The notes under the pieces: model-generated
Databases searched by the model: none
Told to the model about the DNA's origin: nothing
The model's input: only the letters and a program-made list of their open reading frames with translations
Made by a program: the position numbers and the translations under genes
DNA from: an uncultured archaeon
Lineage (GTDB): Archaea > Asgardarchaeota > Lokiarchaeia > Sigyniarchaeales > SOKP01
Direction of reading: 5' to 3'
NCBI GenBank assembly: GCA_964525635.1
Contig: CAZGJX010000080.1
Span: 1 to 21,233 of the forward strand
DNA length: 21,233 nt
In this document: in pieces, positions 915-16,977 of the stretch
Numbering within the stretch: the first letter of the stretch is position 1
Layout: the number at the start of each line of letters is the position of its first letter

Positions 915-1829
915 ATGAAACCTTTAATACTTGTAGTGGATGATGATCCACACATACTAAAATATATTAGAATGATATTAGAATTCAACGAATGTCAGAT
1001 TATTACAGCAGAGAATGGAATTGAGGGTCTGAAAGTCCTCACACAACAAAAAAAAAATCCTGATCTCATCATTAGTGATATAATGATGCCAAAAATGGAC
1101 GGATATGAGTTTTTTAAGGAAATTTCTGATAATCCTAATTTCTGTCATATACCATTTATCTTTTTATCTATTCTTGATTCATCCGAGGATATTCGATTAG
1201 GAAAGATACTTGGAGCAGATGATTATCTTACTAAACCTATTAATGAAAGTGATTTCTCAGCGATAGTTGCCGGTAAAATTAAACGTAGTAAACAAATTCA
1301 ACTAATAAATAAAAAAATAAATGATGACCTTCTTTCAATAGGAATTTCAAAGGATAATCTATCAAATGATAATCTTAATGATGATTATAAGGACTATTTA
1401 ATTATGGTTGAAGTAAATTGGGATGATAGAGTCGGTCCAAAATTAGTAAGTTATTACCCTAAAGGTATTAATTTAGATTTTTCACTCGATAATGTTAGTT
1501 TTCAACTCTATGAGGCAATCAGTGCAATGTATGGTCAAGATAAAATACTAAATGCAGAAGGTCTTTTATTAAATTTAAAAAACTTTAAAATTATGGCGTA
1601 TGTTTATTTTGATTCATATCCAGATGAATCTTACAGAGGTGGAAGAAAGGATTATATGTTATCAATTATTGCACCTAAAATTACATATATACAATCTTTA
1701 AAACTCAAAAAAGTGTTTATGAACATATCTTCTATGTATAAGGAAAAGGGAAAATTGAATATTAAAGCATTTTGGAATCAAATTTTAGATATATTTAAAA
1801 GCCCAACTGTAAAAATTAAAACAGGTTAG
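915..1829 (+). CDS. Response regulator receiver domain fused to a C-terminal longin/uDENN-like domain
   Basis: Intact REC domain: VVDDD, PDLIISD55IMMPKMDG, FLS, ADDYLTK107P. The C-terminal ~140 aa begin with W-D-D-R-V-G-P-K-L-V-S-Y-Y-P (uDENN/longin F-x4-G-P hairpin pattern) and contain DESYRGGRKDYMLSII. REC is certain; the longin assignment is by motif and secondary-structure pattern. Confidence 0.85.
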   Translation: MKPLILVVDDDPHILKYIRMILEFNECQIITAENGIEGLKVLTQQKKNPDLIISDIMMPKMDGYEFFKEISDNPNFCHIPFIFLSILDSSEDIRLGKILGADDYLTKPINESDFSAIVAGKIKRSKQIQLINKKINDDLLSIGISKDNLSNDNLNDDYKDYLIMVEVNWDDRVGPKLVSYYPKGINLDFSLDNVSFQLYEAISAMYGQDKILNAEGLLLNLKNFKIMAYVYFDSYPDESYRGGRKDYMLSIIAPKITYIQSLKLKKVFMNISSMYKEKGKLNIKAFWNQILDIFKSPTVKIKTG

Positions 1830-2380
1830 ATATCAAAGGCTTTTTTAATACTATTTAAATCAAAAATCGTTGTATCATAGGTCTGGTATTGTGTATTAGT
1901 AGTTTGTAAAAAGGGATGAATTTTTTCTATAAATTTATTTTTTAGATTCTTCTCTTTTGGATCATAGTTAGGATCCATCTTATGAAAAAGGAGAATGATT
2001 TTTGCATCAGGACTGTATTTTTGAATAAGTTGATGAACTGCCATGAAATACATAGTAGAATTAAAAAATCGATAATAATCCTGAACATCTACTACATAAT
2101 AGAAAAACGAGATCTCATAAAAATATGATTCAGGATCTTCTAAATAATAATTTCTAAATAACTCTTGACCTCCAAAATCCCAAACCATTATATTTTTTTG
2201 AGGAAGTAATTTTCTTTTTACATTTTTTGTTGGAGTCATATTCGGTGGATAATCGGGATCTATATCAGGCATTTCAATTATATAATCTACGATTGTGGTT
2301 TTTCCAGCGTTTTCCATACCCATAATTACTAATTTACTGGGTTCTTTTTGATTATTAACATCATCCATTTGAAATCTCAT
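1826..2380 (-). CDS. Ras-superfamily small GTPase, Rag/Gtr1-like (Arf/Rag-related), G-domain only
   Basis: G1 GMENAGKT, G2 PT, G3 WDFGGQ, G4 HKMD, G5 TTIFD. HKMD and T(S/T)I(F/W)D are typical of Rag GTPases. Confidence 0.85.
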   Translation of the reverse strand: MRFQMDDVNNQKEPSKLVIMGMENAGKTTIVDYIIEMPDIDPDYPPNMTPTKNVKRKLLPQKNIMVWDFGGQELFRNYYLEDPESYFYEISFFYYVVDVQDYYRFFNSTMYFMAVHQLIQKYSPDAKIILLFHKMDPNYDPKEKNLKNKFIEKIHPFLQTTNTQYQTYDTTIFDLNSIKKAFDI

Positions 2381-4334: not shown

Positions 4335-4432
4335 TTATTAAATAAACTAATAAATTTTGATGATTTTTATCAGAATCATTTAATTTTATGGTTTTATTAT
4401 CTCAATGAATTATCATAAATATTTATATCTAA

Positions 4433-4446
4433 TGAATAATTATTCA
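4433..4446. promoter_or_regulatory. Palindromic operator TGAATAATTATTCA (copy 1)
   Basis: Perfect 14-bp palindrome 25 bp upstream of the ATG at 4472; identical copies at 7818, 10861 and 13371. Confidence 0.8.
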
Positions 4447-4471
4447 GAAATAAAATAAGATTAAAGAGAAC

Positions 4472-4831
4472 ATGACAAGAATAATCGGAATTCCTGCTGA
4501 TGGGCCAGAACTAATAGATAATATATCTGATCATTTTGGACATTGTAATTACTTTGTTGGTGTTGAAACTGATAATAATAATTTAAATAAAACCTTTTCA
4601 ATAAGAAATGAAGGTCATTCTAGTTGTATGGAACCTGTGTTAAATATGAGAGAGAGAAATGTAACTGATATGATCATTGGGGATATTGGGGAAAGACCCT
4701 ATATGAGATTTCTTAAAGTTGTAATTAATCTTTTTCAAGGGCTTCGAGGTAAAACAATAAAGGAAAATATTGAATTTTTATTAGAAGGAAAATTAAACGA
4801 ATTAAAAGGATCAAGTTGTAATAATCATTAA
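4472..4831 (+). CDS. NifB/NifX (IPR003731) family Fe/Mo-cofactor-binding protein
   Basis: IGIPADG...ISDHFGHCNYF motif, GHSSC, and C-terminal SSCNNH. Confidence 0.85.
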   Translation: MTRIIGIPADGPELIDNISDHFGHCNYFVGVETDNNNLNKTFSIRNEGHSSCMEPVLNMRERNVTDMIIGDIGERPYMRFLKVVINLFQGLRGKTIKENIEFLLEGKLNELKGSSCNNH

Positions 4832-4964
4832 ATTGATAATTTTAGAATATTTATTTTATTTATATAATACAATTAATAGTTTGCAAAAATGATATTTAAC
4901 TTTCGAAATTGAATAGGATATAAATCTTAAACTATTGTCTTCGAAAAAAATCAATTGATCTAAT

Positions 4965-5384
4965 ATGGGAAGAAGAATTCGTAGAAGATGGGTAAAATAC
5001 ACACCTAATAATTTTTATTTTCCTGATGCAAGACCATCAAATGAAGATTCTATTATATTAACAATTTCTGAATTTGAGGCTATGCGTCTTAAACATTATT
5101 TAAATTTAGATCAAAAAGCAGCAGCAGATGAAATGGGAATTAGTCAACCAACATTTTCTCGTATTCTTGAAACTGCTCATCAAAAGACAACTCAAGCTCT
5201 TATAGAAGGTAAAGATATTAAAGTTCATGGAGGCAATTTTGATTACAAAGTAAGTTTTGTAGGATATGGATGTATAGATTGTAACCATGAATGGGAGGAT
5301 CAAACTGCATCAAAAGATAAAAAAGTTAATTGCGTTAAATGTAATTCTAAAAATGTCTATTTATTCATTAGAGAACAAATTTAA
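4965..5384 (+). CDS. DUF134 (UPF0251) predicted DNA-binding protein with C-terminal CxxC...CxxC zinc-ribbon-like domain
   Basis: MGRRIRRR start, EFEAMRL, HTH QKAAADEMGISQPTFSRIL, ALIEGKDI..GG, then CIDC and CVKC. Confidence 0.88.
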   Translation: MGRRIRRRWVKYTPNNFYFPDARPSNEDSIILTISEFEAMRLKHYLNLDQKAAADEMGISQPTFSRILETAHQKTTQALIEGKDIKVHGGNFDYKVSFVGYGCIDCNHEWEDQTASKDKKVNCVKCNSKNVYLFIREQI

Positions 5385-5434
5385 TTTACTTCTGTTAATT
5401 ATTTTTTATAAATCTCTTTGAAAAATAATAATAA

Positions 5435-6355
5435 TCAATTCAAAAAAGCTTTTTTTAACTTTAAATAAATTTCATTAATAGCTATACTTGCTTTTGATTT
5501 AGGATCATATTCAACTACAGATTGTGCAAAAGACATTGCTTTAGCTATAGAAAAATCAAATGGAATCCTTCCAATAATATCAAATCCAGTTTCATCAATA
5601 TATTGTTTAAATTCTTTTTGAAAAGGACTTTTTAAATCAGCTTTATTGATAATAATACCGAAAGGGATACCAAACTGTTTTATAACCTCAATTGCTCTAA
5701 TAAGATCATGTAAGCCCGATGGTGTTGGTTCCGTAATTGTTATTACATAATCTAATCCAGAAACGGTAGCTATAACAGGACATCCGATTCCTGGAGGGCC
5801 ATCAATTAAAACCATATTATATTCCTCAAAATTTTCAATATTCTTTATATATGATTTACATTCCGTTACTAATTTACCTGAAGTTGTACTTCCCAATCTC
5901 GTTTTTCCATAGATCAATGGTGCTCCCATATCAGATATATAAGAAATGATTTCACCACTTTTAACAGGATTTATTATAAAAGCATTTTCGGGGCATAATA
6001 CTTTACAAGCACCACATCCTTCACATGATAAATAATTTAATTGAGGTATTCTATTGACATCATCCCAACTTAAAGCGTTAAATTCACAAAATTGTTCATC
6101 AATACATCGTTTACAATGGGTGCATTTTTCATTTTCAAACGTGGCTTTTAAAGTATTATATACGTCTTCTCGTTTAATATCATTATTAGATTTTGATGGA
6201 AGGATTAAAGCCAAATTAGGAGCATCTACATCACAATCTATAATGATTGTTTTTAAGGCAGGATCTTTATTTATCAAAGTTGCAAGAGATGCAACAAGAG
6301 AAGTTTTACCAACACCTCCTTTTCCTGAAACCACTCCAATCATTTTTTTTTTCAA
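5435..6355 (-). CDS. MinD/ParA-superfamily P-loop ATPase with inserted 2x[4Fe-4S] ferredoxin domain
   Basis: [61 protein letters not shown] start with a GAGGTG RBS. Confidence 0.92.
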   Translation of the reverse strand: MKKKMIGVVSGKGGVGKTSLVASLATLINKDPALKTIIIDCDVDAPNLALILPSKSNNDIKREDVYNTLKATFENEKCTHCKRCIDEQFCEFNALSWDDVNRIPQLNYLSCEGCGACKVLCPENAFIINPVKSGEIISYISDMGAPLIYGKTRLGSTTSGKLVTECKSYIKNIENFEEYNMVLIDGPPGIGCPVIATVSGLDYVITITEPTPSGLHDLIRAIEVIKQFGIPFGIIINKADLKSPFQKEFKQYIDETGFDIIGRIPFDFSIAKAMSFAQSVVEYDPKSKASIAINEIYLKLKKAFLN

Positions 6356-7275
6356 TTTTCGATACTCACCTCTTTATTGTTTAACCATTCTAATAAATTT
6401 CTAAATATATTTTGAAATGATTTATATCCTTCATTTTCTCTATTAAAATCATTTTTTTCATCCATTAGAGGCATTCCTTGACAATATGATAATACAATAT
6501 CATCATCTAAAGGAATATCACCAAGAATATTTATCTTATTTTCATCCAACTCTTTTAAAAATAATTCTCTAAAGCCCAATAATGAAGAACGATTAATTAT
6601 AACACGATAATCTTTCTCTAAAAGTTTTATTAACTCTATGATTCTGAATAAATCTAATTTTCCAAATTTTGTAGGTTCGGTAACAGGTATGATCAAATCA
6701 GATTTATTTATTAATAGTTCCACATCACAATGAGCTCCTGGAGCTGTATCAAGAATAATTATATCAAATTTATTGATAATATCATCTAATCTTTCGAGAA
6801 GATTTTCAATTATAGCAGCAGAACGTGCTTCAGATGGTACTAATTCCCCAACCATAAGTGATAGATTATTATCTGTTGAATAATATGTCCATCCTATTAT
6901 TTTAAAATCCTCTTCAATTGCTTTTTGAGGACATATCTTATAACATAATTTACATCCCGAACATACTGTTAATATTGGAATTGGGTAAGCATCTTTCACA
7001 TGTAATAGTGCATGGGTAGCACAATTTTCAGCACATAATCCACATTTATAACAGAATTCTTCTATTATTTTTGGCTTAAAAAAGTATACTGGTTTATTAT
7101 TTTCTAATTTCCTACCCAATAATAAATATGTGTTAGGATTATCAACATCTCCATCTATTAGAAGAACATTTTTTCCTTCGTTTTTAAACATAATTGCTAG
7201 ATTAACGGCAACTAATGTTTTACCTGTCCCTCCTTTTCCTCCTGTAATACAAATTATTTTTGAATTATCAGACAT
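6352..7275 (-). CDS. MinD/ParA-superfamily P-loop ATPase with inserted 2x[4Fe-4S] ferredoxin domain (partner of the downstream paralog)
   Basis: GGKGGTGKT, DGDVDNPN, CYKCGLCAENC, CSGCKLCYKICP, DTAPGAHC, VTEPT. Overlaps the next gene by 4 nt. Confidence 0.92.
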   Translation of the reverse strand: MSDNSKIICITGGKGGTGKTLVAVNLAIMFKNEGKNVLLIDGDVDNPNTYLLLGRKLENNKPVYFFKPKIIEEFCYKCGLCAENCATHALLHVKDAYPIPILTVCSGCKLCYKICPQKAIEEDFKIIGWTYYSTDNNLSLMVGELVPSEARSAAIIENLLERLDDIINKFDIIILDTAPGAHCDVELLINKSDLIIPVTEPTKFGKLDLFRIIELIKLLEKDYRVIINRSSLLGFRELFLKELDENKINILGDIPLDDDIVLSYCQGMPLMDEKNDFNRENEGYKSFQNIFRNLLEWLNNKEVSIEN

Positions 7276-7357
7276 TGTCTACTTTTTACTGTTTATATAA
7301 AATCAATAATTTTATTATTAATTGTGTTGAATATCGAATAATAGACTTAGTTAAAAT

Positions 7358-7759
7358 TTATTTGGGTATATTTTCTTCCATACCATTATGAGAATTAACA
7401 TTTGAAGAAATTAATTCTTTTAATTGACCTTTAATATAAAGATCTACTACATTTTTTATTGAAATTTCTTCTTCCTTTATTTCAAAAACTTTTATATTAA
7501 AAGCTTTAATTGCTTTGTCAGCATTCGGACCCAAAAACCCAATTATTAAAACTTCTGCTTTGTTTTCTCCAACAATTTGAGCCGCTTGTATACCTGCACC
7601 TCCCATTGATTTAGAAGCATAATTACTTAAAATTTTAACTGACTTTATATTATTATTTTCTAATTCAACAAATGTAAAACAAGGACATCTTCCAAAACGT
7701 GGATTTAGCTTATCATTTAATCCACCATTATCCATTGAAGGAATTGCAATAACAACCAT
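7358..7759 (-). CDS. NifB/NifX family protein (MTH1175/Orange-protein-like)
   Basis: IAIPS...LNPRFGRCPCF, GGAGIQAAQ, GFLGPNA. Lies directly upstream of the two Fe-S ATPases, as in ORP-type clusters. Confidence 0.88.
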   Translation of the reverse strand: MVVIAIPSMDNGGLNDKLNPRFGRCPCFTFVELENNNIKSVKILSNYASKSMGGAGIQAAQIVGENKAEVLIIGFLGPNADKAIKAFNIKVFEIKEEEISIKNVVDLYIKGQLKELISSNVNSHNGMEENIPK

Positions 7760-7817
7760 TTTTTAAAAGCCTATTATTAATTGTTTTATGTTTAAATTAT
7801 AGTTATATAAATTATTC

Positions 7818-7831
7818 TGAATAATTATTCA
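7818..7831. promoter_or_regulatory. Palindromic operator TGAATAATTATTCA (copy 2) in a divergent promoter
   Basis: Exact palindrome between divergent genes 7759(-) and 7942(+). A minus-strand TATA-like TTTATATA begins 6 bp beyond it. Confidence 0.85.
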
Positions 7832-7941
7832 TAATAATAAACTTATTAAAATATTTAAATTTAATCTAAATTGAAACTAAAAATTAAATTAAAATTAAAT
7901 TATAGTAATAAAAGAATATAAATAAAAAAAGGTAGACAAAT

Positions 7942-8814
7942 ATGGAAAATCAGAAAATTCCGGATGTTGATTTAAAAGAAACCATTAAACAAGGAAAGAA
8001 AGAAATGATAGATCAACAAACAAAAGATATCAATGAAAATATGGAGAAAATTAAACATAAAATAGTTATTATTTCAGGTAAAGGGGGAGTAGGAAAAACA
8101 ACTGTAGCAGTTAATTTAGCAATGAGTCTTGCAAGTGTTGGTAATAAGGTTGGAATATTAGATGTAGATATTACTGGTCCAAATATCAATAAAATGTTGG
8201 GGATTGATTCAACTTTAAAACCAAGAATTGATCCTGGAATGAAAAAATTCTATCCTGTTGATGGACCATTAAATACTAAAGTAATGAGTATGGCCTTTCT
8301 TATCGAGAGTGCAGATTCACCTGTAATTTGGAGAGGTCCAATGAAAATGGGAGCTGTAAGGCAGTTTCTTGGAGATGCTATATGGGGAAATTTAGACTAT
8401 TTAATATGTGATTTACCTCCCGGAACTTCAGATGAAACTTTAGATATTTTACAACTCATTCCTGATGAGAATGTAATAGTTGTTTCAACGCCTCAAGAAG
8501 TGGCACTAATGGATGCCCGAAAAACCATAAAAATGGCTCAAATTATGCAAAGAAATGTTTTGGGAATTATTGAAAATATGTCGGGATTCCGATGCCCTCA
8601 TTGTAGCAAGGAAATTGATCTTTATCCCCCGGGAGGTGCAGAAAAAGCAGCAAAGGATTTTAATATTGAGCTTTTAGGAAAAATTCCTTTTGATATTAAT
8701 GTAAGTATACAAGGTGATGAAGGTTTACCTTTTGTAATTAAACATGCTGATAATGAAAGTTCTAAATCTTTTAAAGAGATAGTAGATAAAATTCAGATAC
8801 TTTTGGAAAAATAA
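7942..8814 (+). CDS. mrp: Mrp/ApbC/NBP35 family Fe-S cluster carrier ATPase
   Basis: [49 protein letters not shown]. Confidence 0.95.
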
Positions 8815-8845
8815 AATAAAACAATAATTAAAAAAAAAAATAAGT

Positions 8846-9289
8846 ATGTCAAAAAAAGATTTTGATACTTTTTTGGAAAAACTTCAAAAAGAGATTATAG
8901 ATAAAGAAATTGAAGAATATAATGAATATATTGTTGAATTATTTCATAATCCAAAGAATTGGGGAAAACCAGATGAGCAGAATATAACCGTATGGCATGC
9001 ATATGAGGGGTCTTGTGGTGATACCATGCAATTTTTTCTTAAAATAAAGGACAATATTATTGAAAAAATAAATTTCATTACAGATGGATGTGGTGCTTCA
9101 GTTGCCACAGGAAGCCAAACAACTTTACTTGTTCAAGGTAAATCTTTAGATATTGCTGAAAAAATAGAACCGATAGATATTGATAATGCTTTAAAAGGAT
9201 TACCAGATGATCATAAACATTGTGCTGTATTAGCGGCAGAAACGTTAAAAGGAGCAATAAGTAAATATAAAATTTCTGATAATCTATGA
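8846..9289 (+). CDS. iscU: IscU/NifU-N family Fe-S scaffold protein
   Basis: HNPKNWG, SCGDTM, DGCGAS, HKHCA: the three conserved Cys of IscU. Confidence 0.9.
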   Translation: MSKKDFDTFLEKLQKEIIDKEIEEYNEYIVELFHNPKNWGKPDEQNITVWHAYEGSCGDTMQFFLKIKDNIIEKINFITDGCGASVATGSQTTLLVQGKSLDIAEKIEPIDIDNALKGLPDDHKHCAVLAAETLKGAISKYKISDNL

Positions 9290-9365
9290 AAAGTAGATAT
9301 TTTAAACTAAAAATATCAGAAAAAGAGACACAATTATTTTTATAAATTTAATTAAATGATTTAAG

Positions 9366-10307
9366 ATGAAATATGTCTATGGACCCGTTCCCAGCAGAAG
9401 ATTAGGGAGTTCTTTAGGAATTGATCCTATTCCTTTTAAAACGTGCAATTATCAATGTATTTATTGCCAATTGGGAAGGACCAATAATTTTACAAATAAA
9501 AGAAAGAATTATTTCCAAAAAAACGACATAATTAATGAGATAAAAATTGCTTTAAAGTTAAATAATAATAATTTTAAATATATAACCTTTGTAGGGAGTG
9601 GAGAACCTACTCTATACAAAGATTTAGAAGATTTAATATTGGAAGTAAAAAAGAATTCAAAAAAACCAATCTCTGTTATTACAAATGGGGCTTTATTGTA
9701 TAATGAAGAAGTGAGAAATGCTCTTATTAATGCTGATGTTGTTTTACCAAGTTTTGATGCTGGAAATGAGAAATTATTTATTCAAATTAATCGTCCTCAT
9801 CCTTCTATTAAATATAGTGATGTTATTAAAGGTTTTATTGATTTTAGAAAAGAATTTAAGGGAAAACTATGGATTGAAATAATGATAATGAAAGGAATTA
9901 ATGATTCTAAAGAAGTTTTATTGGAAATAAAGAAGAAATTAAATAAAATAAAACCTGACAGAATTGATATTAATATTCCAATAAGAAGTCCTACAGAAGA
10001 TTGGGTTAATATTCCAGATAACCAGGTTTATAATCTTTTAAATAATATTTTTGGAAATTTCAAAAATCTTAATTTTCCTGAGGAAGGAGAATTTCAGATA
10101 TATTCTTCAAATTTTGAAGGAGAAGTTTTATCTATAATTCAACGTCATCCTATGAGGCAAGAACAAATCTTTAATACTTTTTCTTCACAATTTTTAAATG
10201 AAAAAGATATTTTAACACGTTTAGAGAAACTTGAGTCAAAAAAAAAAATCCAAAAAAAAATATATAATAAAAAGATTTATTGGAAATTTAGAGAGGATTC
10301 AAACTAG
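9366..10307 (+). CDS. Radical SAM protein (COG0731-like family)
   Basis: YVYGPVPSRRLGSSLGID, CNYQCIYC (CxxxCxxC), GSGEPTL, ITNG. Confidence 0.9.
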   Translation: MKYVYGPVPSRRLGSSLGIDPIPFKTCNYQCIYCQLGRTNNFTNKRKNYFQKNDIINEIKIALKLNNNNFKYITFVGSGEPTLYKDLEDLILEVKKNSKKPISVITNGALLYNEEVRNALINADVVLPSFDAGNEKLFIQINRPHPSIKYSDVIKGFIDFRKEFKGKLWIEIMIMKGINDSKEVLLEIKKKLNKIKPDRIDINIPIRSPTEDWVNIPDNQVYNLLNNIFGNFKNLNFPEEGEFQIYSSNFEGEVLSIIQRHPMRQEQIFNTFSSQFLNEKDILTRLEKLESKKKIQKKIYNKKIYWKFREDSN

Positions 10308-10348
10308 CTAAAAATAAATTATTTTATTATTTAAAACTCACTTTAGAA

Positions 10349-10816
10349 TTAATACCCCGTACGTCTACCTTGACCACCGCCTGCTCCAAGCCCCCCACCT
10401 GCTCCACGGCCTCCCCCCATTCCTCTTCCTCCGCCCATTCCATAATGTGCATTAACATTAGAATTTGTTATTTTTGTTAATTTATTTTGAAGAAATAAAT
10501 CAATAGATGTCTTAACCGTTAATTCCTGATTTGGTGCTTGGAAAATATCCAAATTTAAAGAACTTAATGATTGAAATGCATTTGGTCCTAAAAAGTTAAC
10601 AATTATTGCATTAGCACTATTATCTCCGATTATTTTTGCTGCTTGTATCCCAGCGCCTCCAAAAGCTTCATTTGCACTATTGGGAATTGTTTTTACTGCT
10701 TCTATTTTGTTATTTTCAATTGTTACAAAAGTAAAACTATCACAACGTCCAAAACGAGGATTTAAAGTTTCATTTAAACCACCATTCCCATATGTAGGAA
10801 CCGCAACTATTACCAT
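10349..10816 (-). CDS. NifB/NifX family protein with Gly/Arg-rich C-terminal tail (IssA-like architecture)
   Basis: LNPRFGRCDSF, GGAGIQAA, LGPNAF; tail HYGMGGGRGMGGGRGAGGGLGAGGGQGRRTGY. Confidence 0.88.
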   Translation of the reverse strand: MVIVAVPTYGNGGLNETLNPRFGRCDSFTFVTIENNKIEAVKTIPNSANEAFGGAGIQAAKIIGDNSANAIIVNFLGPNAFQSLSSLNLDIFQAPNQELTVKTSIDLFLQNKLTKITNSNVNAHYGMGGGRGMGGGRGAGGGLGAGGGQGRRTGY

Positions 10817-10860
10817 TTAAAATTCAACCTTGTTTTTTTAATAGTTATATTTAAGAATTA

Positions 10861-10874
10861 TGAATAATTATTCA
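10861..10874. promoter_or_regulatory. Palindromic operator TGAATAATTATTCA (copy 3) in a divergent promoter
   Basis: Exact palindrome, extending to 16 bp (ATGAATAATTATTCAT), between 10816(-) and 10960(+). A minus-strand CTTAAATA begins 5 bp beyond it. Confidence 0.85.
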
Positions 10875-10959
10875 TTAATATATAATAAAAATTATAACTA
10901 TAAAAATCTAATCATTAAAAAAAAATAATCAAAATCATTATTGGGAGTTAATTCAAAAA

Positions 10960-11364
10960 ATGAAATATGCAATAAGTACAGATGGAGATGAGGTATGTCC
11001 ACATTTCGGTAGAGCCCCTCATTTTACTATTATAAATATAAAAGATAATAAATTAATTGATAAAAATCTACTTACTAATCCAGGTCATACTATTGGAAGC
11101 ATTCCTAAATTTATTTCTGACCAAGGTGTAAATTGTATGATTACCGGAGGAATGGGTCATAGAGCAGTTCAATTCTTTAACCAATATGCTATAGACGTTA
11201 TAGTTGGTATATCTGGTAAAATAAATTATGTCATTGAAAAAATACTAGATGGAACATTAGAAGGAGGAGAAAGCATATGCGCCCCAGGAAGGGGTAAAGG
11301 ATATGGAATAGAAAAAATCCATACTGAAGAAGATGAAAATGATAAATTAAATCATCATCACTAA
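10960..11364 (+). CDS. NifB/NifX family protein with Cys/His-containing tail
   Basis: YAISTDG..VCPHFGRAPHF, NPGH, TGGMG; C-terminal CAPGRGKGYG...HHH. Confidence 0.88.
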   Translation: MKYAISTDGDEVCPHFGRAPHFTIINIKDNKLIDKNLLTNPGHTIGSIPKFISDQGVNCMITGGMGHRAVQFFNQYAIDVIVGISGKINYVIEKILDGTLEGGESICAPGRGKGYGIEKIHTEEDENDKLNHHH

Positions 11365-11488
11365 TCTTCAATACTTAATCAATCAATTAAGATCAATTTC
11401 TATAATAATAAAGAAGATAAAAATAATATGGATTTTACAAATATTTATTCAAAATTATATTTTTTATTTAAATTTATTTTAGAGAAAA

Positions 11489-12175
11489 ATGTTAAAAAAT
11501 ATACAATCATTTAGAATTGATATTGTATTTGATAATAGGTCTATAAAAAATGAATTTTTAGAGGGTTTTGGATTTTCTGCATTAATATATAATTATTTTA
11601 CAGGTAACTTTTTATTATTTGATACAGGAGGTAATTCTGAAATTCTTATTCATAATTTCAAATCACTTAATATTGATATTAAAGAGATAAAAAAAATAAT
11701 AATTTCTCATGATCATTTTGATCATTCTGGCGGGCTTGAAGGAATTTATAATATTAATTCGGAGATAGAAATTTATATACCATTCGAAACTTACACTAAT
11801 TATAAATCAAAATTCCCAAATTCAAAAATAAATAAAATATCAAATTCTATAGTAATTGAAAAGAATGTATATTCATCCGGTCAATTAGGAACTTCATTAA
11901 AAGAACAAGCTATTTATTTAAAAACATTAAAGAATGAAATAATTATTTTAGTTGGTTGTGCTCACCCTGGATTGGAGAATATTATTGTAGATGCAAATAA
12001 ATTTGGAAATATTAAAGCTATAATTGGTGGATTTCATAATTTTCGTAAATATTCTTATTTAAAAAATATACAATTTATTGGTGCATGTCATTGTACGACA
12101 CATATAAATGATATTAAAAAAAGATTTCCCAATCAATATAAAGAAATTTTTGTTGGATCTTCGTTAATATTTTAA
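11489..12175 (+). CDS. Metallo-beta-lactamase fold hydrolase (COG1237-like)
   Basis: LLFDTG, SHDHFDHSGG (HxHxDH), GCAHPG, GGFH, CHCT. Confidence 0.9.
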   Translation: MLKNIQSFRIDIVFDNRSIKNEFLEGFGFSALIYNYFTGNFLLFDTGGNSEILIHNFKSLNIDIKEIKKIIISHDHFDHSGGLEGIYNINSEIEIYIPFETYTNYKSKFPNSKINKISNSIVIEKNVYSSGQLGTSLKEQAIYLKTLKNEIIILVGCAHPGLENIIVDANKFGNIKAIIGGFHNFRKYSYLKNIQFIGACHCTTHINDIKKRFPNQYKEIFVGSSLIF

Positions 12176-12285
12176 AATAATAAATTAATCAAGAGAATTA
12201 GATTAAACATAGATTAAAAAGGAAAAAAAAATATTGGAGAAGAAAGCTAATATTTAGATAAAATTACTATTAAAGAGATTCCAAA

Positions 12286-12495
12286 TTGAAAGCTAAAACT
12301 AAAATATGTAAATGGTATACTCTTTGTCCGATAAAATATTATGTTGAAAATGGTAAATTGGATATAAAATGGATTGAAGAATATTACTTAATAGGAAATA
12401 AAGATTGTTTTAGATATAAAATGGAAGAAGATAGAATTCATCATCCAAATAATATGCTACCTAATGGCGAAATAAATCAAGATCTTCATTTTTAA
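12286..12495 (+). CDS. Small Cys-containing hypothetical protein
   Basis: 69 aa, TTG start; CKWY..CP, C.RY.MEE, HP.NMLP.G. Fills the gap between neighbouring genes; function unknown. Confidence 0.65.
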   Translation: MKAKTKICKWYTLCPIKYYVENGKLDIKWIEEYYLIGNKDCFRYKMEEDRIHHPNNMLPNGEINQDLHF

Positions 12496-12522
12496 TTAAA
12501 TTCATTGATATGATTTTTTTTA

Positions 12523-12921
12523 TCAGTTGTTATGAGTAAAGTTATCTAAAGCTTCAGTGACTTCTGATGTGATATGATGTTCAATTCCACAGCATAATTT
12601 ATTTAGTAAATATTTATCATTAATTTTTAATGTATTAATAAAAAAAGATTTCAAAATATTATATCGTGTTAAAATCTTTTTTGCAATCATTTTACCTTCA
12701 GAAGATAATCTTAATGAACGTCTTGGTTTCCAAAATATCAAATTATTTTTCTTAAGTTTATATAACATTCCTGTCACTGAAGGAGGTCTAATTTTTAAGT
12801 AATCTGCAATTTCTGAATTCGAAACCCATCCACCTCTTTTTCTTTTTGAAATTATATAAATTGCCTTTAGATAGTCTTCTCTACTTTCATAAATATCGTT
12901 AGAAATTTCTTCCACCTTCAA
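12523..12921 (-). CDS. DtxR/MntR family metal-dependent transcriptional regulator (no SH3/FeoA domain)
   Basis: EDYLKAIY, HTH SEIADYLKIRPPSVTGMLYKL, LSSEG, CCGIEHH. TTG start 6 bp after the DUF5320 stop. Confidence 0.9.
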   Translation of the reverse strand: MKVEEISNDIYESREDYLKAIYIISKRKRGGWVSNSEIADYLKIRPPSVTGMLYKLKKNNLIFWKPRRSLRLSSEGKMIAKKILTRYNILKSFFINTLKINDKYLLNKLCCGIEHHITSEVTEALDNFTHNN

Positions 12922-12927
12922 AATGAA

Positions 12928-13290
12928 TTATTCTGGTTTTTTTACATTAGTAATTTTTTTCGTAATATCATTAATAGCTTTATTAATTTCGTTCATTTCA
13001 CTCTCTAAATATTCCTTTTCTTGTTTAAGAATATCTATTTGGTTCTCAGGAGTGACATTTGGTACACTTATAGGTACAAAAGGATTATATGATGGCGGCC
13101 AGTATCCTCCGAATCCTCTAAAACCTCTACTAAATCGAATACCTCTGCCTCTACCTCTGCCCCCCCCAAAATATCCCCCCATTCCAGGACCTCTTGTATA
13201 TCCTGGTGAATCAAAGCCTGAACAATAACCTAAACCTCGACCCGTCCTTGGACCTAGTCCATTAGGGCCCGTACGATCTCCACCTGGCAA
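12928..13290 (-). CDS. DUF5320 family protein (Gly/Arg-rich N-terminus, C-terminal coiled coil)
   Basis: MPGGDRTGPNGLGPRTGRGLGYC signature, RG-rich middle, LKQEKEYLESEM..I coiled coil. GAGGTG RBS before the TTG start. Confidence 0.88.
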   Translation of the reverse strand: MPGGDRTGPNGLGPRTGRGLGYCSGFDSPGYTRGPGMGGYFGGGRGRGRGIRFSRGFRGFGGYWPPSYNPFVPISVPNVTPENQIDILKQEKEYLESEMNEINKAINDITKKITNVKKPE

Positions 13291-13370
13291 ATTTTTTACA
13301 CCTCTTATTTTTATTTTAATTATTAATTTTTTCTTATGTATAAAATAGTAAAATTCATATTTAAGTTTTA

Positions 13371-13384
13371 TGAATAATTATTCA
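13371..13384. promoter_or_regulatory. Palindromic operator TGAATAATTATTCA (copy 4)
   Basis: Exact palindrome upstream of the DUF5320-dtxR unit. A minus-strand CTTAAATA begins 5 bp beyond it. Confidence 0.85.
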
Positions 13385-13549
13385 GAATAAATATTTTCAT
13401 TTAAAAATCGTAAAAATGTAAACGATAGAAATGATAATTATAATGACATTTCCTTACTCTTAATAATCCAATAAATATATATTGTATTTCTTTCAAATAA
13501 TATAAAATTTAAATATGATTGATATAATCAAATCACTATAAATGTATTA

Positions 13550-13563
13550 TGAATATATATTCA
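13550..13563. promoter_or_regulatory. Variant operator TGAATATATATTCA
   Basis: Perfect palindrome with the same TGAATA/TATTCA arms and a different 2-bp centre; extends to ATG...CAT. Confidence 0.6.
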
Positions 13564-13727: not shown

Positions 13728-13765
13728 TTAGGAAACCCTAATATTTTAATATTAGTTATGACTAA
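13728..13765. promoter_or_regulatory. Tandem DtxR/MntR-type boxes TTAGGAAACCCTAA (13728-13741) and TTAGTTATGACTAA (13752-13765)
   Basis: Two TTAG-N6-CTAA inverted repeats, starting 24 bp apart, just upstream of feoA1 and near a dtxR gene. Confidence 0.7.
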
Positions 13766-13803: not shown

Positions 13804-14100
13804 ATGGGATCTAGTTATAAAGATACAAGGAAAACCTCTATGAAAAATACACCATTAATTAAGTGTCTTAATGAATGTAATATAGGAGAGGAGCTTGAAG
13901 TCCAAAAAGTTGATGCAGGAATTATGGCAACACAAAGATTAGCTAACTTAGGAATTGTTCCTGGTGTTAAAATAATTATAAGTAAAGCAGCTCCATTAAA
14001 TGGTCCTATCGAAATAACAGTTAAGGGAACTAAAATAGTACTCGGTAGAGGATTAGTTTCTAAAATTATAGTGAAATGTAATAATAGTTGTAATGGTTAA
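13804..14100 (+). CDS. feoA: Ferrous iron transport protein A (copy 1)
   Basis: RLANLGIVPG, APLNGPIEI.VKG..IVLGRG. An alternative start exists at 13840. Confidence 0.92.
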   Translation: MGSSYKDTRKTSMKNTPLIKCLNECNIGEELEVQKVDAGIMATQRLANLGIVPGVKIIISKAAPLNGPIEITVKGTKIVLGRGLVSKIIVKCNNSCNG

Positions 14101-14338
14101 AATTTAAATACTTTTTTAGATCCTATTTATTAAAGAAAAAGTCATATTTCTATTTATAAAACTAAAAAGATAAACTAAATAATAAATTATCTATATTACA
14201 TAACTTTATTGAATTATTCAATAAATTTATTATATTTGATTTAAACTTTTTATTTTTGATTAAATATTTATTATTAAATATAGAAAATTCATATATTTTG
14301 ATTTATAATCTCAAAATTAGAATATTTCTTTATATTAA

Positions 14339-14352
14339 TTAGTTGTACCTAA
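14339..14352. promoter_or_regulatory. DtxR/MntR-type box TTAGTTGTACCTAA
   Basis: Third TTAG-N6-CTAA, directly before a CTTAAATA TATA-like element upstream of feoA2. Confidence 0.65.
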
Positions 14353-14412
14353 AAGCTTAAATATGATTATTCATAATATGAATATAGGAAAAATCATTTT
14401 TTTTTTATAATT

Positions 14413-14718
14413 ATGAATAATACAATAACAAAAAAATTAAAACATGTAGAAAGACAAGGAATTCCACTAATAAGATGCTTAACTCAATGTGAAAAAAATG
14501 AAGTTTTATTAGTTGATTCAGTAAATTCTGGAGGAAATGCTAAAAATCGTTTAGCAAATTTAGGAATTATTCCTGGATCTAAGATAATAAAAAAGAAAAT
14601 CGCTCCATTAAAAGGTCCACTAGAAATTGAAATAAAAGGATCTAAATTAATTATTGGAAGAGGATTAGCTTCAAAAATATTAGTTAAGTGTCCAAAAAAA
14701 TGTCAATCTGAAATATAA
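14413..14718 (+). CDS. feoA: Ferrous iron transport protein A (copy 2)
   Basis: RLANLGIIPG, APLKGPLEIEIKG..LIIGRG. Confidence 0.92.
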   Translation: MNNTITKKLKHVERQGIPLIRCLTQCEKNEVLLVDSVNSGGNAKNRLANLGIIPGSKIIKKKIAPLKGPLEIEIKGSKLIIGRGLASKILVKCPKKCQSEI

Positions 14719-14814
14719 AGAATTTAAAATATAATATCTCTATTTAAAAAAACCTAAAATACCAAATCTTTGAATTAAAATCTATTTTATTGGAGTGTAA
14801 AAACAAGATCAAAA

Positions 14815-16977
14815 ATGAAAAAACATAAAAGAAAACATCGTTTCAAGGAACAATTTAAAGGTTGTAAAAAAAAGCAAGAGACGAAGGATGGAAGAATTAT
14901 AAATATTGCTTTAGCGGGTAATCCTAATGTTGGAAAAAGTGTTATCTTTAACCAATTAACGGGACTTTCACAAACTATCGGTAATTGGCCTGGAAAAACA
15001 GTTGAAAGGATGGAAGGTCATTTGAATTTCTTAGGTCATTATATTAATATAGTTGATTTACCAGGTATTTATTCATTATCGACTTATTCTTTAGAAGAAA
15101 TTGTTAGTAGGGAATACATTGTTTCTGATGAAGTTGATATAATTATAAATGTTGTTGATGCTACAAACCTAGAAAGAAATCTTTTTTTAACTTTTCAATT
15201 GCTAGAATTAAGGATTCCTATAATCATTGCTATTAATCAAATGGATATACTTAGAAAGCGAAATATTGAACTTAATTTTGAGAAATTTGAGGAAATATTT
15301 AAGGTCCCAGTTATTCCCGTTGTAGCTGTTCATGGTGTTGGTGTACATCAATTATTAGAAGAAGTAATTGAATTAATTTATCACCAAGAATTCCATCCAC
15401 ATCGTCAAGAACATAAGACTAAACACTGGAGAGAACATCAACATTCTTTTAATATGAAAAGTATTTATCACCAACTAGAATCTAAGACTTCATTTAAGGA
15501 TATTTATAAATTTCCTGATTTGTCTTCCTTACTTTTATTTGGTAAAGAAATAGAATATAAAATTAATGATTTATGGAAACAATTGGATAATCGTTTTATA
15601 AATCCTAATCAATATTCATATCCCTCTCGATTTTTAGCATTAAAAATCCTTGAAAATGATAATGAAATTATAAAAATACTTTCAAAGAAAAAAGAAAACA
15701 TTAAAATAATAGAATCAGCAGAAAAATTTAGAAAAGAATTGGAGGATTATCATGGAGAGGATATTTCTACTATATTATCTTCCGAAATATATCAAAATAT
15801 TAATAGAGTTTTAGATGATTTAATAATTATTAAGTCTAAAAATGAAATTAAGAAAGAGACAATTACCGATATTTTAGATCATATAACAACTCATTCAATT
15901 TTTGGCTATATTATTTTAATTTTTGTTCTAATTGGAATATATTTATTTACTTTTACTATTGGAGACTTTTTGAAAGGATTATCAGAGGATTTATATAATA
16001 ATTTAAGCAATAATATAGATACTGATACTAATTTATCAAAAATTTTATGGGAAGGTGCTATGGGGGGATTCTTTGGAGCTGTGGGTGGTGTATTAGTATA
16101 TGTCATCCCGTTTTTCTTGATTATCGAAATCTTGCAAGATTCTGGTTACTTACCAAGAGCAGCATTTTTATTAGATAAATTTATGCATTTTCTAGGTGTT
16201 CATGGTAAAACTATTATTCCAATGATTCTTGGTTTTGGATGTAATGTACCTGCTTGCGCAGGATGTAGAATTATGGAGACTGAGAGAGAGAAAAAGATTT
16301 CTGTAGCTCTTACTTCATTGATTCCATGTGCTGCAACAATGACTGTTGTTATGGGATTAGTTGGTAGATATTTAGGATTTAATTATGTTTTGATTTTGTT
16401 TGGAATTAATTTTATTGTTATACTAATAGTTGGAAGAATTTTAAATAGAATTATGCCAGGTGAATGTACTGAACTAATTATGGAAATGCACGAGTACCGT
16501 GCCCCAAATACTAATGTTATTATGAAACAAACATGGATTCGTTCCAAAGAATTTATCTTTAAATCATTACCTATTATCGTCATAATTGGAATTCTAATGG
16601 AAGTTATGTACATATTTAATGCTCTCGATCCAGTCAATTTAGTACTCTCACCAATTACGGTTTTATGTTTAGGTCTTCCAGCTGTAACTGGAGTATTTCT
16701 AATATATGGAATTTTAAGAAAAGAATTAACAGTTGTTCTGCTTGGAGGTCTTGCTGAATCTATGGGTTTAGTATCCATATTGGAATTATTGACTCCTATT
16801 CAAATGTTTACTTTTAGTTTGGTTACAATGTTGTATATCCCCTGTTTTGCTACGATAATCATAATTGCTAAGCAAACTAATTGGAAGTATGCAATTCAAA
16901 TTTCCTTAATGGAGATATTCATTGCTATATTAATAGGAAGTCTTATTAATTGGGGATATTATTTATTTACAATTTAA
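14815..16977 (+). CDS. feoB: Ferrous iron transport protein B
   Basis: GNPNVGKS, GNWPGKTVE, DLPGIYSL, NQMD, DSGYLPRAAF, GFGCNVPA, LYIPC, and multiple TM helices. Confidence 0.97.
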   Translation: MKKHKRKHRFKEQFKGCKKKQETKDGRIINIALAGNPNVGKSVIFNQLTGLSQTIGNWPGKTVERMEGHLNFLGHYINIVDLPGIYSLSTYSLEEIVSREYIVSDEVDIIINVVDATNLERNLFLTFQLLELRIPIIIAINQMDILRKRNIELNFEKFEEIFKVPVIPVVAVHGVGVHQLLEEVIELIYHQEFHPHRQEHKTKHWREHQHSFNMKSIYHQLESKTSFKDIYKFPDLSSLLLFGKEIEYKINDLWKQLDNRFINPNQYSYPSRFLALKILENDNEIIKILSKKKENIKIIESAEKFRKELEDYHGEDISTILSSEIYQNINRVLDDLIIIKSKNEIKKETITDILDHITTHSIFGYIILIFVLIGIYLFTFTIGDFLKGLSEDLYNNLSNNIDTDTNLSKILWEGAMGGFFGAVGGVLVYVIPFFLIIEILQDSGYLPRAAFLLDKFMHFLGVHGKTIIPMILGFGCNVPACAGCRIMETEREKKISVALTSLIPCAATMTVVMGLVGRYLGFNYVLILFGINFIVILIVGRILNRIMPGECTELIMEMHEYRAPNTNVIMKQTWIRSKEFIFKSLPIIVIIGILMEVMYIFNALDPVNLVLSPITVLCLGLPAVTGVFLIYGILRKELTVVLLGGLAESMGLVSILELLTPIQMFTFSLVTMLYIPCFATIIIIAKQTNWKYAIQISLMEIFIAILIGSLINWGYYLFTI

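Follow-up and report, generated by a model that had tools for sequence, protein, structure and literature searches.

DeoR of Bacillus subtilis binds an operator in front of dra-nupC-pdp, ATTGAACAAAATTTCAAT, which has the form TGAA-N6-TTCA, and its Arg39 contacts the G of this element (PMC11229326); in Desulfovibrio vulgaris, the orp operons are controlled by OrpR, a sigma-54 activator that senses redox state via a [4Fe-4S] cluster (PMC8359166). Here we analyze a 21,233-nucleotide stretch of DNA (hereafter, the window: contig CAZGJX010000080.1, denoted C80, of the 4,454,025-base genome G000, 26.8% GC) from an uncultured archaeon of the order Sigyniarchaeales (Lokiarchaeia, Asgardarchaeota), in which a palindrome recurs in front of genes for proteins resembling those of the orp operons. 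We consider it likely that this palindrome is the operator of a transcription factor of the DUF134 family encoded in the same window (139 amino acids, positions 4965–5384, plus strand), that it overlaps the transcription factor B recognition element (BRE), and that repression is the most economical account of its action. Among archaeal regulators, SurR, TrmBL1/Tgr, TFB-RF1, and MDR1 use palindromic sites that are fixed relative to the BRE and TATA box and lie both upstream and downstream of TATA within one regulon; these belong to protein families other than DUF134.

The likeness to DeoR extends to both the site and the protein. The palindrome has the same core and spacing (TGAA-TAATTA-TTCA here), the profile of the DUF134 family hits the DNA-binding domain of the B. 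subtilis protein (PDB 7bhy, 8r7y) with E = 1.3e-7, and the recognition helix ISRPTVSRLL of DeoR is similar to ISQPTFSRIL of the window DUF134. DeoR is a promoter-overlapping repressor that binds as pairs of dimers on one face of the DNA, an arrangement that can be compared with the 61-bp tandem sites described below. Unlike DeoR, DUF134 is devoid of the ~250-amino-acid NagB-like sugar-phosphate effector domain and carries a zinc-ribbon-like tail with four cysteines instead; the first arginine of the helix is a glutamine in the Asgard DUF134 proteins; the promoters are of the archaeal TBP/TFB type, not sigma-70; and the target genes are unrelated. DUF134 shares only the DNA-binding domain with the SorC/DeoR family.

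The exact 14-mer TGAATAATTATTCA is found in the window at positions 4433, 7818, 10861, and 13371, and a palindromic variant with two mismatches and an ATAT center, TGAATATATATTCA, at 13550, in accord with an earlier note made from the sequence alone. In the position weight matrix, the variant scores 23.0, compared to 22.7–27.5 for the exact copies, and the ATAT-centered form is the sole or standard one in Asgard families f14 and f20. From 100 dinucleotide-preserving shuffles of the window, zero exact copies are expected. The genome-wide scan that the earlier note had proposed as a check found the exact 14-mer four times in 4,454,025 bases, all inside a 9-kb part of the window, against about 0.5 copies expected by chance for the whole genome (an estimate from base frequencies); the exact motif is thus specific to the window rather than randomly abundant. 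All five sites are intergenic, and annotation of the window with Pfam bears out the previously drawn gene map, placing them 5′ of NifX1-DUF134, of the divergent NifX2-MinD-MinD and mrp-iscU-radical SAM operons, of NifX3 and NifX4 (with the adjoining metallo-beta-lactamase-fold gene), of DUF5320-dtxR, and, at a distance of 240 bp, of feoA. A further possible site with 11 of 14 matches before the metallo-beta-lactamase-fold gene (11438–11451, CAAATATTTATTCA) had to be discarded: it is missing the near-invariant G and scores only 5.6, and window matches with up to three mismatches are at chance level (13 observed vs 13.6 expected). Orthologs of the metallo-beta-lactamase-fold gene in other genomes bear their own exact site.

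The individual copies are accompanied by TATA-like elements. Operator 1 (4433–4446) follows the order TTTATATC (4422–4429), 3 bp, operator, 25 bp, ATG of NifX1, and hence is placed downstream of the TATA box and ahead of the transcription start of the NifX1-DUF134 unit. Operator 2 (7818–7831) is located in the divergent region between NifX2 (minus strand, ATG at 7759) and mrp (plus strand, ATG at 7942), with the TATA-like TTATATAA at 7803–7810; operator 3 (10861–10874), between NifX3 (minus strand, ATG at 10816) and NifX4 with the metallo-beta-lactamase-fold gene (plus strand, ATG at 10960), is flanked on both sides by TATA-like elements (ATATTTAA at 10847–10854 and another at 10879–10886). 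Operator 4 (13371–13384) is 80 bp 5′ of DUF5320-dtxR on the minus strand and is accompanied by ATATTTAA at 13357–13364, which reads TTAAATAT on the minus strand. The variant, operator 5 (13550–13563), has the TATA-like CTATAAAT at 13536–13543 and, as a possible target, feoA 240 bp downstream. The TATA-like element noticed earlier toward the minus-strand gene at three copies (7818, 10861, and 13371) was recovered, with a gap of 6–7 bp.

The bases next to the 14-mer are conserved as well (T 0.71, A 0.64, A 0.87 over 155 intergenic sites in relatives), which extends the motif to a 20-bp palindrome, TTATGAAT-N4-ATTCATAA. Its center is AT-rich, and its core is TGAAT-N4-ATTCA, that is, TGAA-N6-TTCA; in the weight matrix, the G is the most informative base. 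Written out, the 20-bp operator is TTATGAATAATTATTCATAA. Twenty-seven of the 41 genomes of the same order contain the exact 14-mer, with a reversed-sequence control near zero, and the order-wide sites flank orthologs of NifX, MinD-Fer4, Mrp, IscU, radical SAM, DUF5320, DtxR, FeoA, the metallo-beta-lactamase-fold protein, thioredoxin/FMN reductase, and DUF134. The 80 loci centered on DUF134 (585 kb in total) contain 121 TGAAT-N4-ATTCA sites, 71 with the AATT center and only two intragenic; the count of this core in the entire G000 genome is 28. With up to two mismatches, the 20-mer is found in 61 of 151 Asgard genomes, including families f7, f14, f20, and f23 (control again near zero). The seeming exception, G004, has TGAATAATTATTCG 20 bp ahead of a NifX-NifX-NifX-MinD-MinD operon. 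Promoter geometry is retained as well: same-genus genomes repeat the operator 1 arrangement, with the site 22 bp from the NifX1 ATG; sites orthologous to operator 2 occur in dozens of genomes, 20–60 bp from NifX2/3 and 48–194 bp from Mrp; and, when the region is aligned to G001, a genome of the same genus, the TATA box and palindrome of operator 4 form a conserved block. Conservation in orthologous promoters, the other check proposed in the earlier note, is thus seen across the order and beyond it, and the comparison confirms the palindrome as what appears to be a real DNA switch, conserved widely in Loki-type Asgard archaea. The idea that it serves as the operator of a dimeric factor coordinating iron-sulfur (Fe-S) and metal-cofactor genes gains support from this conservation together with the genome-wide specificity and the phasing with TATA. 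A literature search yielded no publication describing the motif or the regulon, which is consistent with its status as a candidate undescribed regulon.

Both DUF134 and DtxR had been named as candidate binders; the evidence favors the former and disfavors the latter, which probably has its own boxes at feo and lacks the gene linkage. Four lines converge on DUF134 as the reader: loci picked by the motif, the homology to DeoR, the presence of a separate, probable DtxR motif, and the genomes that have the motif without DtxR, along with the case of G022. Among 16 loci of other Asgard families selected on the motif alone (f7, f14, f20, and f23), 13 have a DUF134 gene directly downstream of the palindrome, and none has a DtxR gene near the site. 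DUF134 heads a DUF134-NifX-NifX-MinD-MinD array in 11 of these 13, with no NifX or MinD neighbor detected in two f20 loci, and the DUF134 proteins involved are only 30–37% identical to that of the window. G000 itself holds a single DUF134 gene. In G022, a 99% complete genome of the same family, no DUF134, NifX-like, MinD-Fer4, or DUF5320 genes, no extra IscU paralogs, and no site were found, but the C3-type DtxR is kept; in its sister, G013, DUF134, the NifX-like genes, the MinD-Fer4 pair, and the extra IscU paralogs are present, with DUF5320 not detected. The module looks dispensable and appears to have been lost as a unit in G022, although this presence-absence test is suggestive only, because the regulon genes were lost along with DUF134.

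The window protein matches PF02001 with 70.1 bits, compared to the curated cut-off of 27. Its AlphaFold2 model (predicted local distance difference test score 90.7) contains three helices, and a structure search matched the protein to region 4 of sigma-70 and to the DNA-binding domain of DeoR. Alignments delineate an arginine-rich N-terminal arm, the helix-turn-helix, and cysteines C103, C106, C123, and C126, which are invariant or nearly so. The C-terminal CxxC...CxxC tail resembles the zinc ribbons of Rpo12/RpoP and HypA and, weakly, the rubredoxin-like domain of rubrerythrin; the f7 DUF134 proteins, about 100 amino acids long, do not have it. The signature S-Q-x-x-x-x-R of the recognition helix is found in every site-proximal DUF134. 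The family f20 proteins (L176:3522–4028, L177:3518–4018) have a Gly/Arg-rich tail, RGRGRGGRGKGAG..., like the tail of a NifX-like protein in the window (10349–10447). A second, short DUF134 paralog (107–116 amino acids; L174:7490–7813, L175:244–564, L185:10659–10982) has the helix VSRGTVWRLL and a Gly/Arg-rich N-terminus and sits at the end of the operon or, in G149, directly before feoA-feoB. No TGAAT site is adjacent to this S-R-G-T-V-W-R paralog in the loci examined, and it may read a different operator; the contrast between the paralogs suggests that specificity may depend on Q or R at this helix position (Q61 in the window protein).

Across the sites, an outward TTTAWATA is found at offset 5 in 21% of the flanks and an inward TATWTAAA at offset 3 in 17%, vs ~1.5–2% elsewhere, and, in flanks with an adjacent TATA-like box, the same-side ATG follows at a median of 57–65 bp. 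At most promoters, judging from these distances, the operator appears to lie just upstream of TATA, over the BRE, with its center near -42; the overlap with the BRE follows from the operator ending only 5–6 bp from the TATA box at most sites. Accordingly, the placement at or next to the BRE given in the earlier note holds for most promoters and fails at NifX1-DUF134, where the site is downstream of the box. Single sites can sit midway between divergent genes, ~50 bp from either ATG. TATA-like boxes stand out in the GC-richer families f14, f20, and f7, where the order is, respectively, TTTAAATG, 5 bp, site, 4 bp, GTG start codon; TATATTTAAATA, 4 bp, site, 12 bp, ATG; and site, 10 bp, TTTATATA, ~21 bp, ATG. 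The position of the f14 site between TATA and GTG implies that this promoter would be leaderless and self-repressing. In addition, there are 27 tandem pairs of sites 60–62 bp apart, or about 6 helical turns, and a TATA-like box separates the two members (for example, L035:5437/5498, L082:1108/1170, and G000 C174:4779/4840). By analogy with DeoR tetramers, such pairs suggest that neighboring sites are bound co-operatively and on the same face of the DNA; they may also reflect looped binding.

We infer the binding of DUF134, the sign of regulation, and the signal as follows. A DUF134 dimer would set two DeoR-type recognition helices (ISQPTFSRIL) into successive major grooves on the TGAAT arms, such that one dimer at one operator could serve two divergent promoters. 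It would repress by shutting out TFB or RNA polymerase, and repression would be lifted when the four-cysteine domain changes with metal, Fe-S, or redox status; the outcome would be joint control of the NifX/MinD-ferredoxin genes, Mrp-IscU, DUF5320-DtxR, and the thioredoxin system. We prefer repression on grounds of economy, as it would explain all the geometries by one mechanism.

The sign of regulation is where the strongest competing account arises. Archaeal factors bound upstream of the BRE and TATA usually activate, and the same DUF134, reading the same operator, could be mainly an activator that recruits TFB/TBP from a BRE-adjacent site (center at about -42), acting as a repressor only downstream of TATA, for instance at its own operon in the genus of the window, and would then be a dual regulator whose effect depends on position, in the manner of SurR or TrmBL1. 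Taking the nearest gene as the reference, the majority of the TATA-adjacent sites are indeed upstream of the box, the f7 site is 10 bp 5′ of a clear TTTATATA box, which leaves room for the BRE, and the central location of single sites between divergent genes fits activation as well. However, the gap between core and TATA is only 5–6 bp at most sites, and the TAA flank of the operator falls on BRE positions, which favors competition with TFB; the f14, f20, and genus g1 sites lie between the TATA box and the start; and repression alone fits every geometry. We regard a predominantly activating DUF134 as possible but on balance doubtful. The identity of the reader is questioned by another account, in which an unlinked factor of a different family binds the palindrome and DUF134 is merely a co-regulated neighbor. 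This would accommodate the many f1 genomes where DUF134 is ~300 bp from the site or stands alone, but not readily the linkage of site and DUF134 across families sharing only 30–40% DUF134 identity, the DeoR precedent with identical half-site and spacing, or the joint loss of DUF134 and the regulon in G022. With Fur, PerR, or Zur considered as the reader, a search of the genome for the FUR family (PF01475) yielded a single marginal match (24.9 bits, model residues 13–70, inside a 323-amino-acid frame), and the boxes of Rex, CRP/FNR, and Fur presumably differ from the palindrome in half-sites or spacing. An unlinked reader accordingly seems improbable.

Still less credence can be given to a DtxR/MntR-family protein, either the island copy (12523–12921) or its paralog on contig C3, reading the palindrome as a metal-dependent repressor. 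It is true that dtxR follows operator 4, so that self-regulation is possible, that the regulon includes metal genes (ZIP and a site near feoA), and that the operators of this family are AT-rich palindromes. Yet, the arms are TGAAT, not the TTAGG...CCTAA type of characterized DtxR/IdeR/MntR operators, and the feo promoters bear a TTAGG-N4-CCTAA box of their own, kept in G001 and G002; the island-type copy was not found in G002, G003, G010, G013, and G014, all of which have the motif; the C3-type copy persists in G022 where there are no sites; and the f7, f14, f20, and f23 loci have no DtxR gene near the site. The least plausible possibility, to which we assign hardly any weight, is that the palindrome has no regulator and is instead a structural part of the core promoter or a small mobile or repeat sequence. 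Its fixed distance to the TATA-like box would be compatible with such an element, but the copies share about 20 bp amid unrelated flanks and are confined to one functional gene set instead of promoters in general, and the dyad symmetry and in-phase 61-bp pairs fit protein dimers.

Several observations weigh against repression by DUF134 at this palindrome. In many f1 genomes, DUF134 is located ~300 bp from the nearest site, and hence self-regulation is not universal. BRE-abutting or upstream sites (most of those in f1, and those in f7) usually predict activation, so the sign may depend on position, and the orientation of TATA boxes is uncertain in DNA of 27% GC. The four cysteines may merely hold a structural zinc. 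Furthermore, the bacterial DUF134 promoters examined contain no TGAAT palindrome. In Clostridium butyricum pCBU1 (L173), GTTATTG-N8-CAATAAC, which contains ATGCCAATAAC, is found ~120 bp 5′ of the DUF134 gene, and DUF134 loci from delta-proteobacterial metagenomes show a conserved AT-rich block with TATTTAT repeats; given these other motifs, a similar recognition helix alone does not fix the half-site. ATGCCAATAAC is common to two Clostridia, C. butyricum and Acetoanaerobium noterae (L172), and overlaps the predicted sigma-70 promoter of the DUF134 genes, which makes GTTATTG-N8-CAATAAC a candidate bacterial DUF134 operator with other half-sites. Because the clostridial and delta-proteobacterial motifs differ, the Asgard half-site is not transferable to bacteria; the top matches in the search for homologous proteins are all from Asgard relatives.

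One-mismatch and weight-matrix scans of G000 added a few clustered sites outside the window: three on contig C174, at 1347 (ahead of a small open reading frame and thioredoxin reductase) and at 4779 and 4840 (near thioredoxin-FMN reductase); two on C64, at 16408 and 16506 (TGGATAATTATTCA), in the region that separates a gene for a ZIP transporter from thioredoxin-ferredoxin; and a further weight-matrix site on C103, at 8631. Nothing else was added except for two matrix hits inside genes (C35:20267 and C78:19420), which are probably spurious. The predicted regulon thereby takes in genes for thioredoxin, thioredoxin reductase, FMN reductase, and ZIP on contigs other than that of the window. At the iron uptake genes, two TTAG-N6-CTAA boxes (starting at 13728 and 13752; 13728–13765) precede feoA1 and a third (14339–14352) precedes feoA2; these three are the only ones in the window, compared to 206 genome-wide, and TTAGG-N4-CCTAA boxes recur at the feo promoters of G001 and G002. 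The feo boxes are probably the DtxR operator, separate from the palindrome, which would define a cascade where DUF134 controls dtxR and dtxR controls feo.

As mapped by Pfam annotation, the island begins with NifX-like gene 1, of the orange-protein/MTH1175 type (4472–4831, plus strand), the first gene behind operator 1, followed by DUF134. The minus-strand operon at 5435–7759 encodes NifX-like protein 2 (7358–7759) and two ATPases of the MinD type into which a 4Fe-4S ferredoxin domain is inserted (6352–7275 and 5435–6355). The next plus-strand operon (7942–10307) carries mrp, whose product is an Fe-S carrier resembling MrpORP, followed by iscU and a gene for a radical SAM protein; then come NifX-like gene 3 (10349–10816, minus strand), NifX-like gene 4 with the metallo-beta-lactamase-fold gene (10960–12175, plus strand), DUF5320 (12928–13290) with the DtxR/MntR-type regulator (together 12523–13290, minus strand), which we read as a regulated target, and feoA-feoA-feoB (13804–16977, plus strand). 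DUF5320 has a TTG start and the conserved N-terminus (M)PGGDRTGPNGLGPRTGRGLGYC; an operator is nearly always found in front of it, and dtxR is often next to it. Elsewhere in the window (915–2380), a response-regulator receiver protein is encoded beside a Gtr1/RagA-like small GTPase, typical of Asgard genomes.

The gene content is that of an orange-protein-type cluster, with four PF02579 proteins, two CbiA/ParA ATPases with Fer4, and an Mrp-type carrier. The NifX-like proteins match the orange protein of D. gigas (PDB 2wfb, E = 2.7e-12) and MTH1175 (1eo1); Mrp scores 328 bits against the MrpORP model, below the cut-off of 450, because the C-terminal NifX domain is absent. As in the D. vulgaris orp system, NifX/orange-protein-like proteins are encoded together with ferredoxin-bearing ATPases of the MinD type and a carrier resembling MrpORP, and divergent operons are co-regulated out of one intergenic region. 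The regulators have nothing in common: DUF134 is a small protein with a helix-turn-helix and a zinc ribbon, whereas OrpR belongs to the AAA+ enhancer-binding proteins and has a PAS [4Fe-4S] domain. OrpR is an obligate activator of two operons, and the island regulon adds IscU, DtxR, and the thioredoxin system. An analogy can also be drawn with IscR and SufR, Fe-S-sensing repressors of Fe-S biogenesis, which, like the proposed DUF134 regulator, are small dimeric helix-turn-helix proteins with a cysteine-ligated metal site that would control scaffold and carrier genes (IscU, Mrp) and their own expression. There is no homology, however, as the Rrf2 and DeoR/ArsR-type folds differ, and a CxxC...CxxC arrangement is found more typically with zinc or with iron of the rubredoxin type. 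Only tentatively could DUF134 be viewed as the Asgard counterpart of IscR or OrpR, with a four-cysteine domain that would take up iron or an Fe-S cluster and signal the redox or Fe-S state. It would act through the BRE-overlapping operator as a switch with position-dependent effects, shutting down its own operon and governing pairs of divergent promoters by one dimer, and would be placed above DtxR in a cascade linking Fe-S assembly to iron uptake.

DUF134/UPF0251 (PF02001, COG1342) is a large family, with 4,739 clusters at 50% identity matching the profile at E ≤ 0.001. Public annotations describe it as a predicted DNA-binding protein only, and a literature search turned up neither a paper on what DUF134, UPF0251, or COG1342 does nor a characterized member. 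The 20-bp operator, the target set, and the DeoR precedent make the family testable. The targets are of interest in themselves: the role of orange-protein-type NifX/MinD-ferredoxin proteins in anaerobes is unclear, and a regulator with its signal would help explain it. Genetics is barely possible in Asgard archaea, and conserved operators with fixed spacing to TATA provide a rare view of Asgard promoter architecture, including apparently leaderless promoters. If DUF134 indeed turns out to be a counterpart of IscR and OrpR, both the DUF134 family and the Asgard archaea would thereby gain a first transcription factor with a defined operator and regulon.

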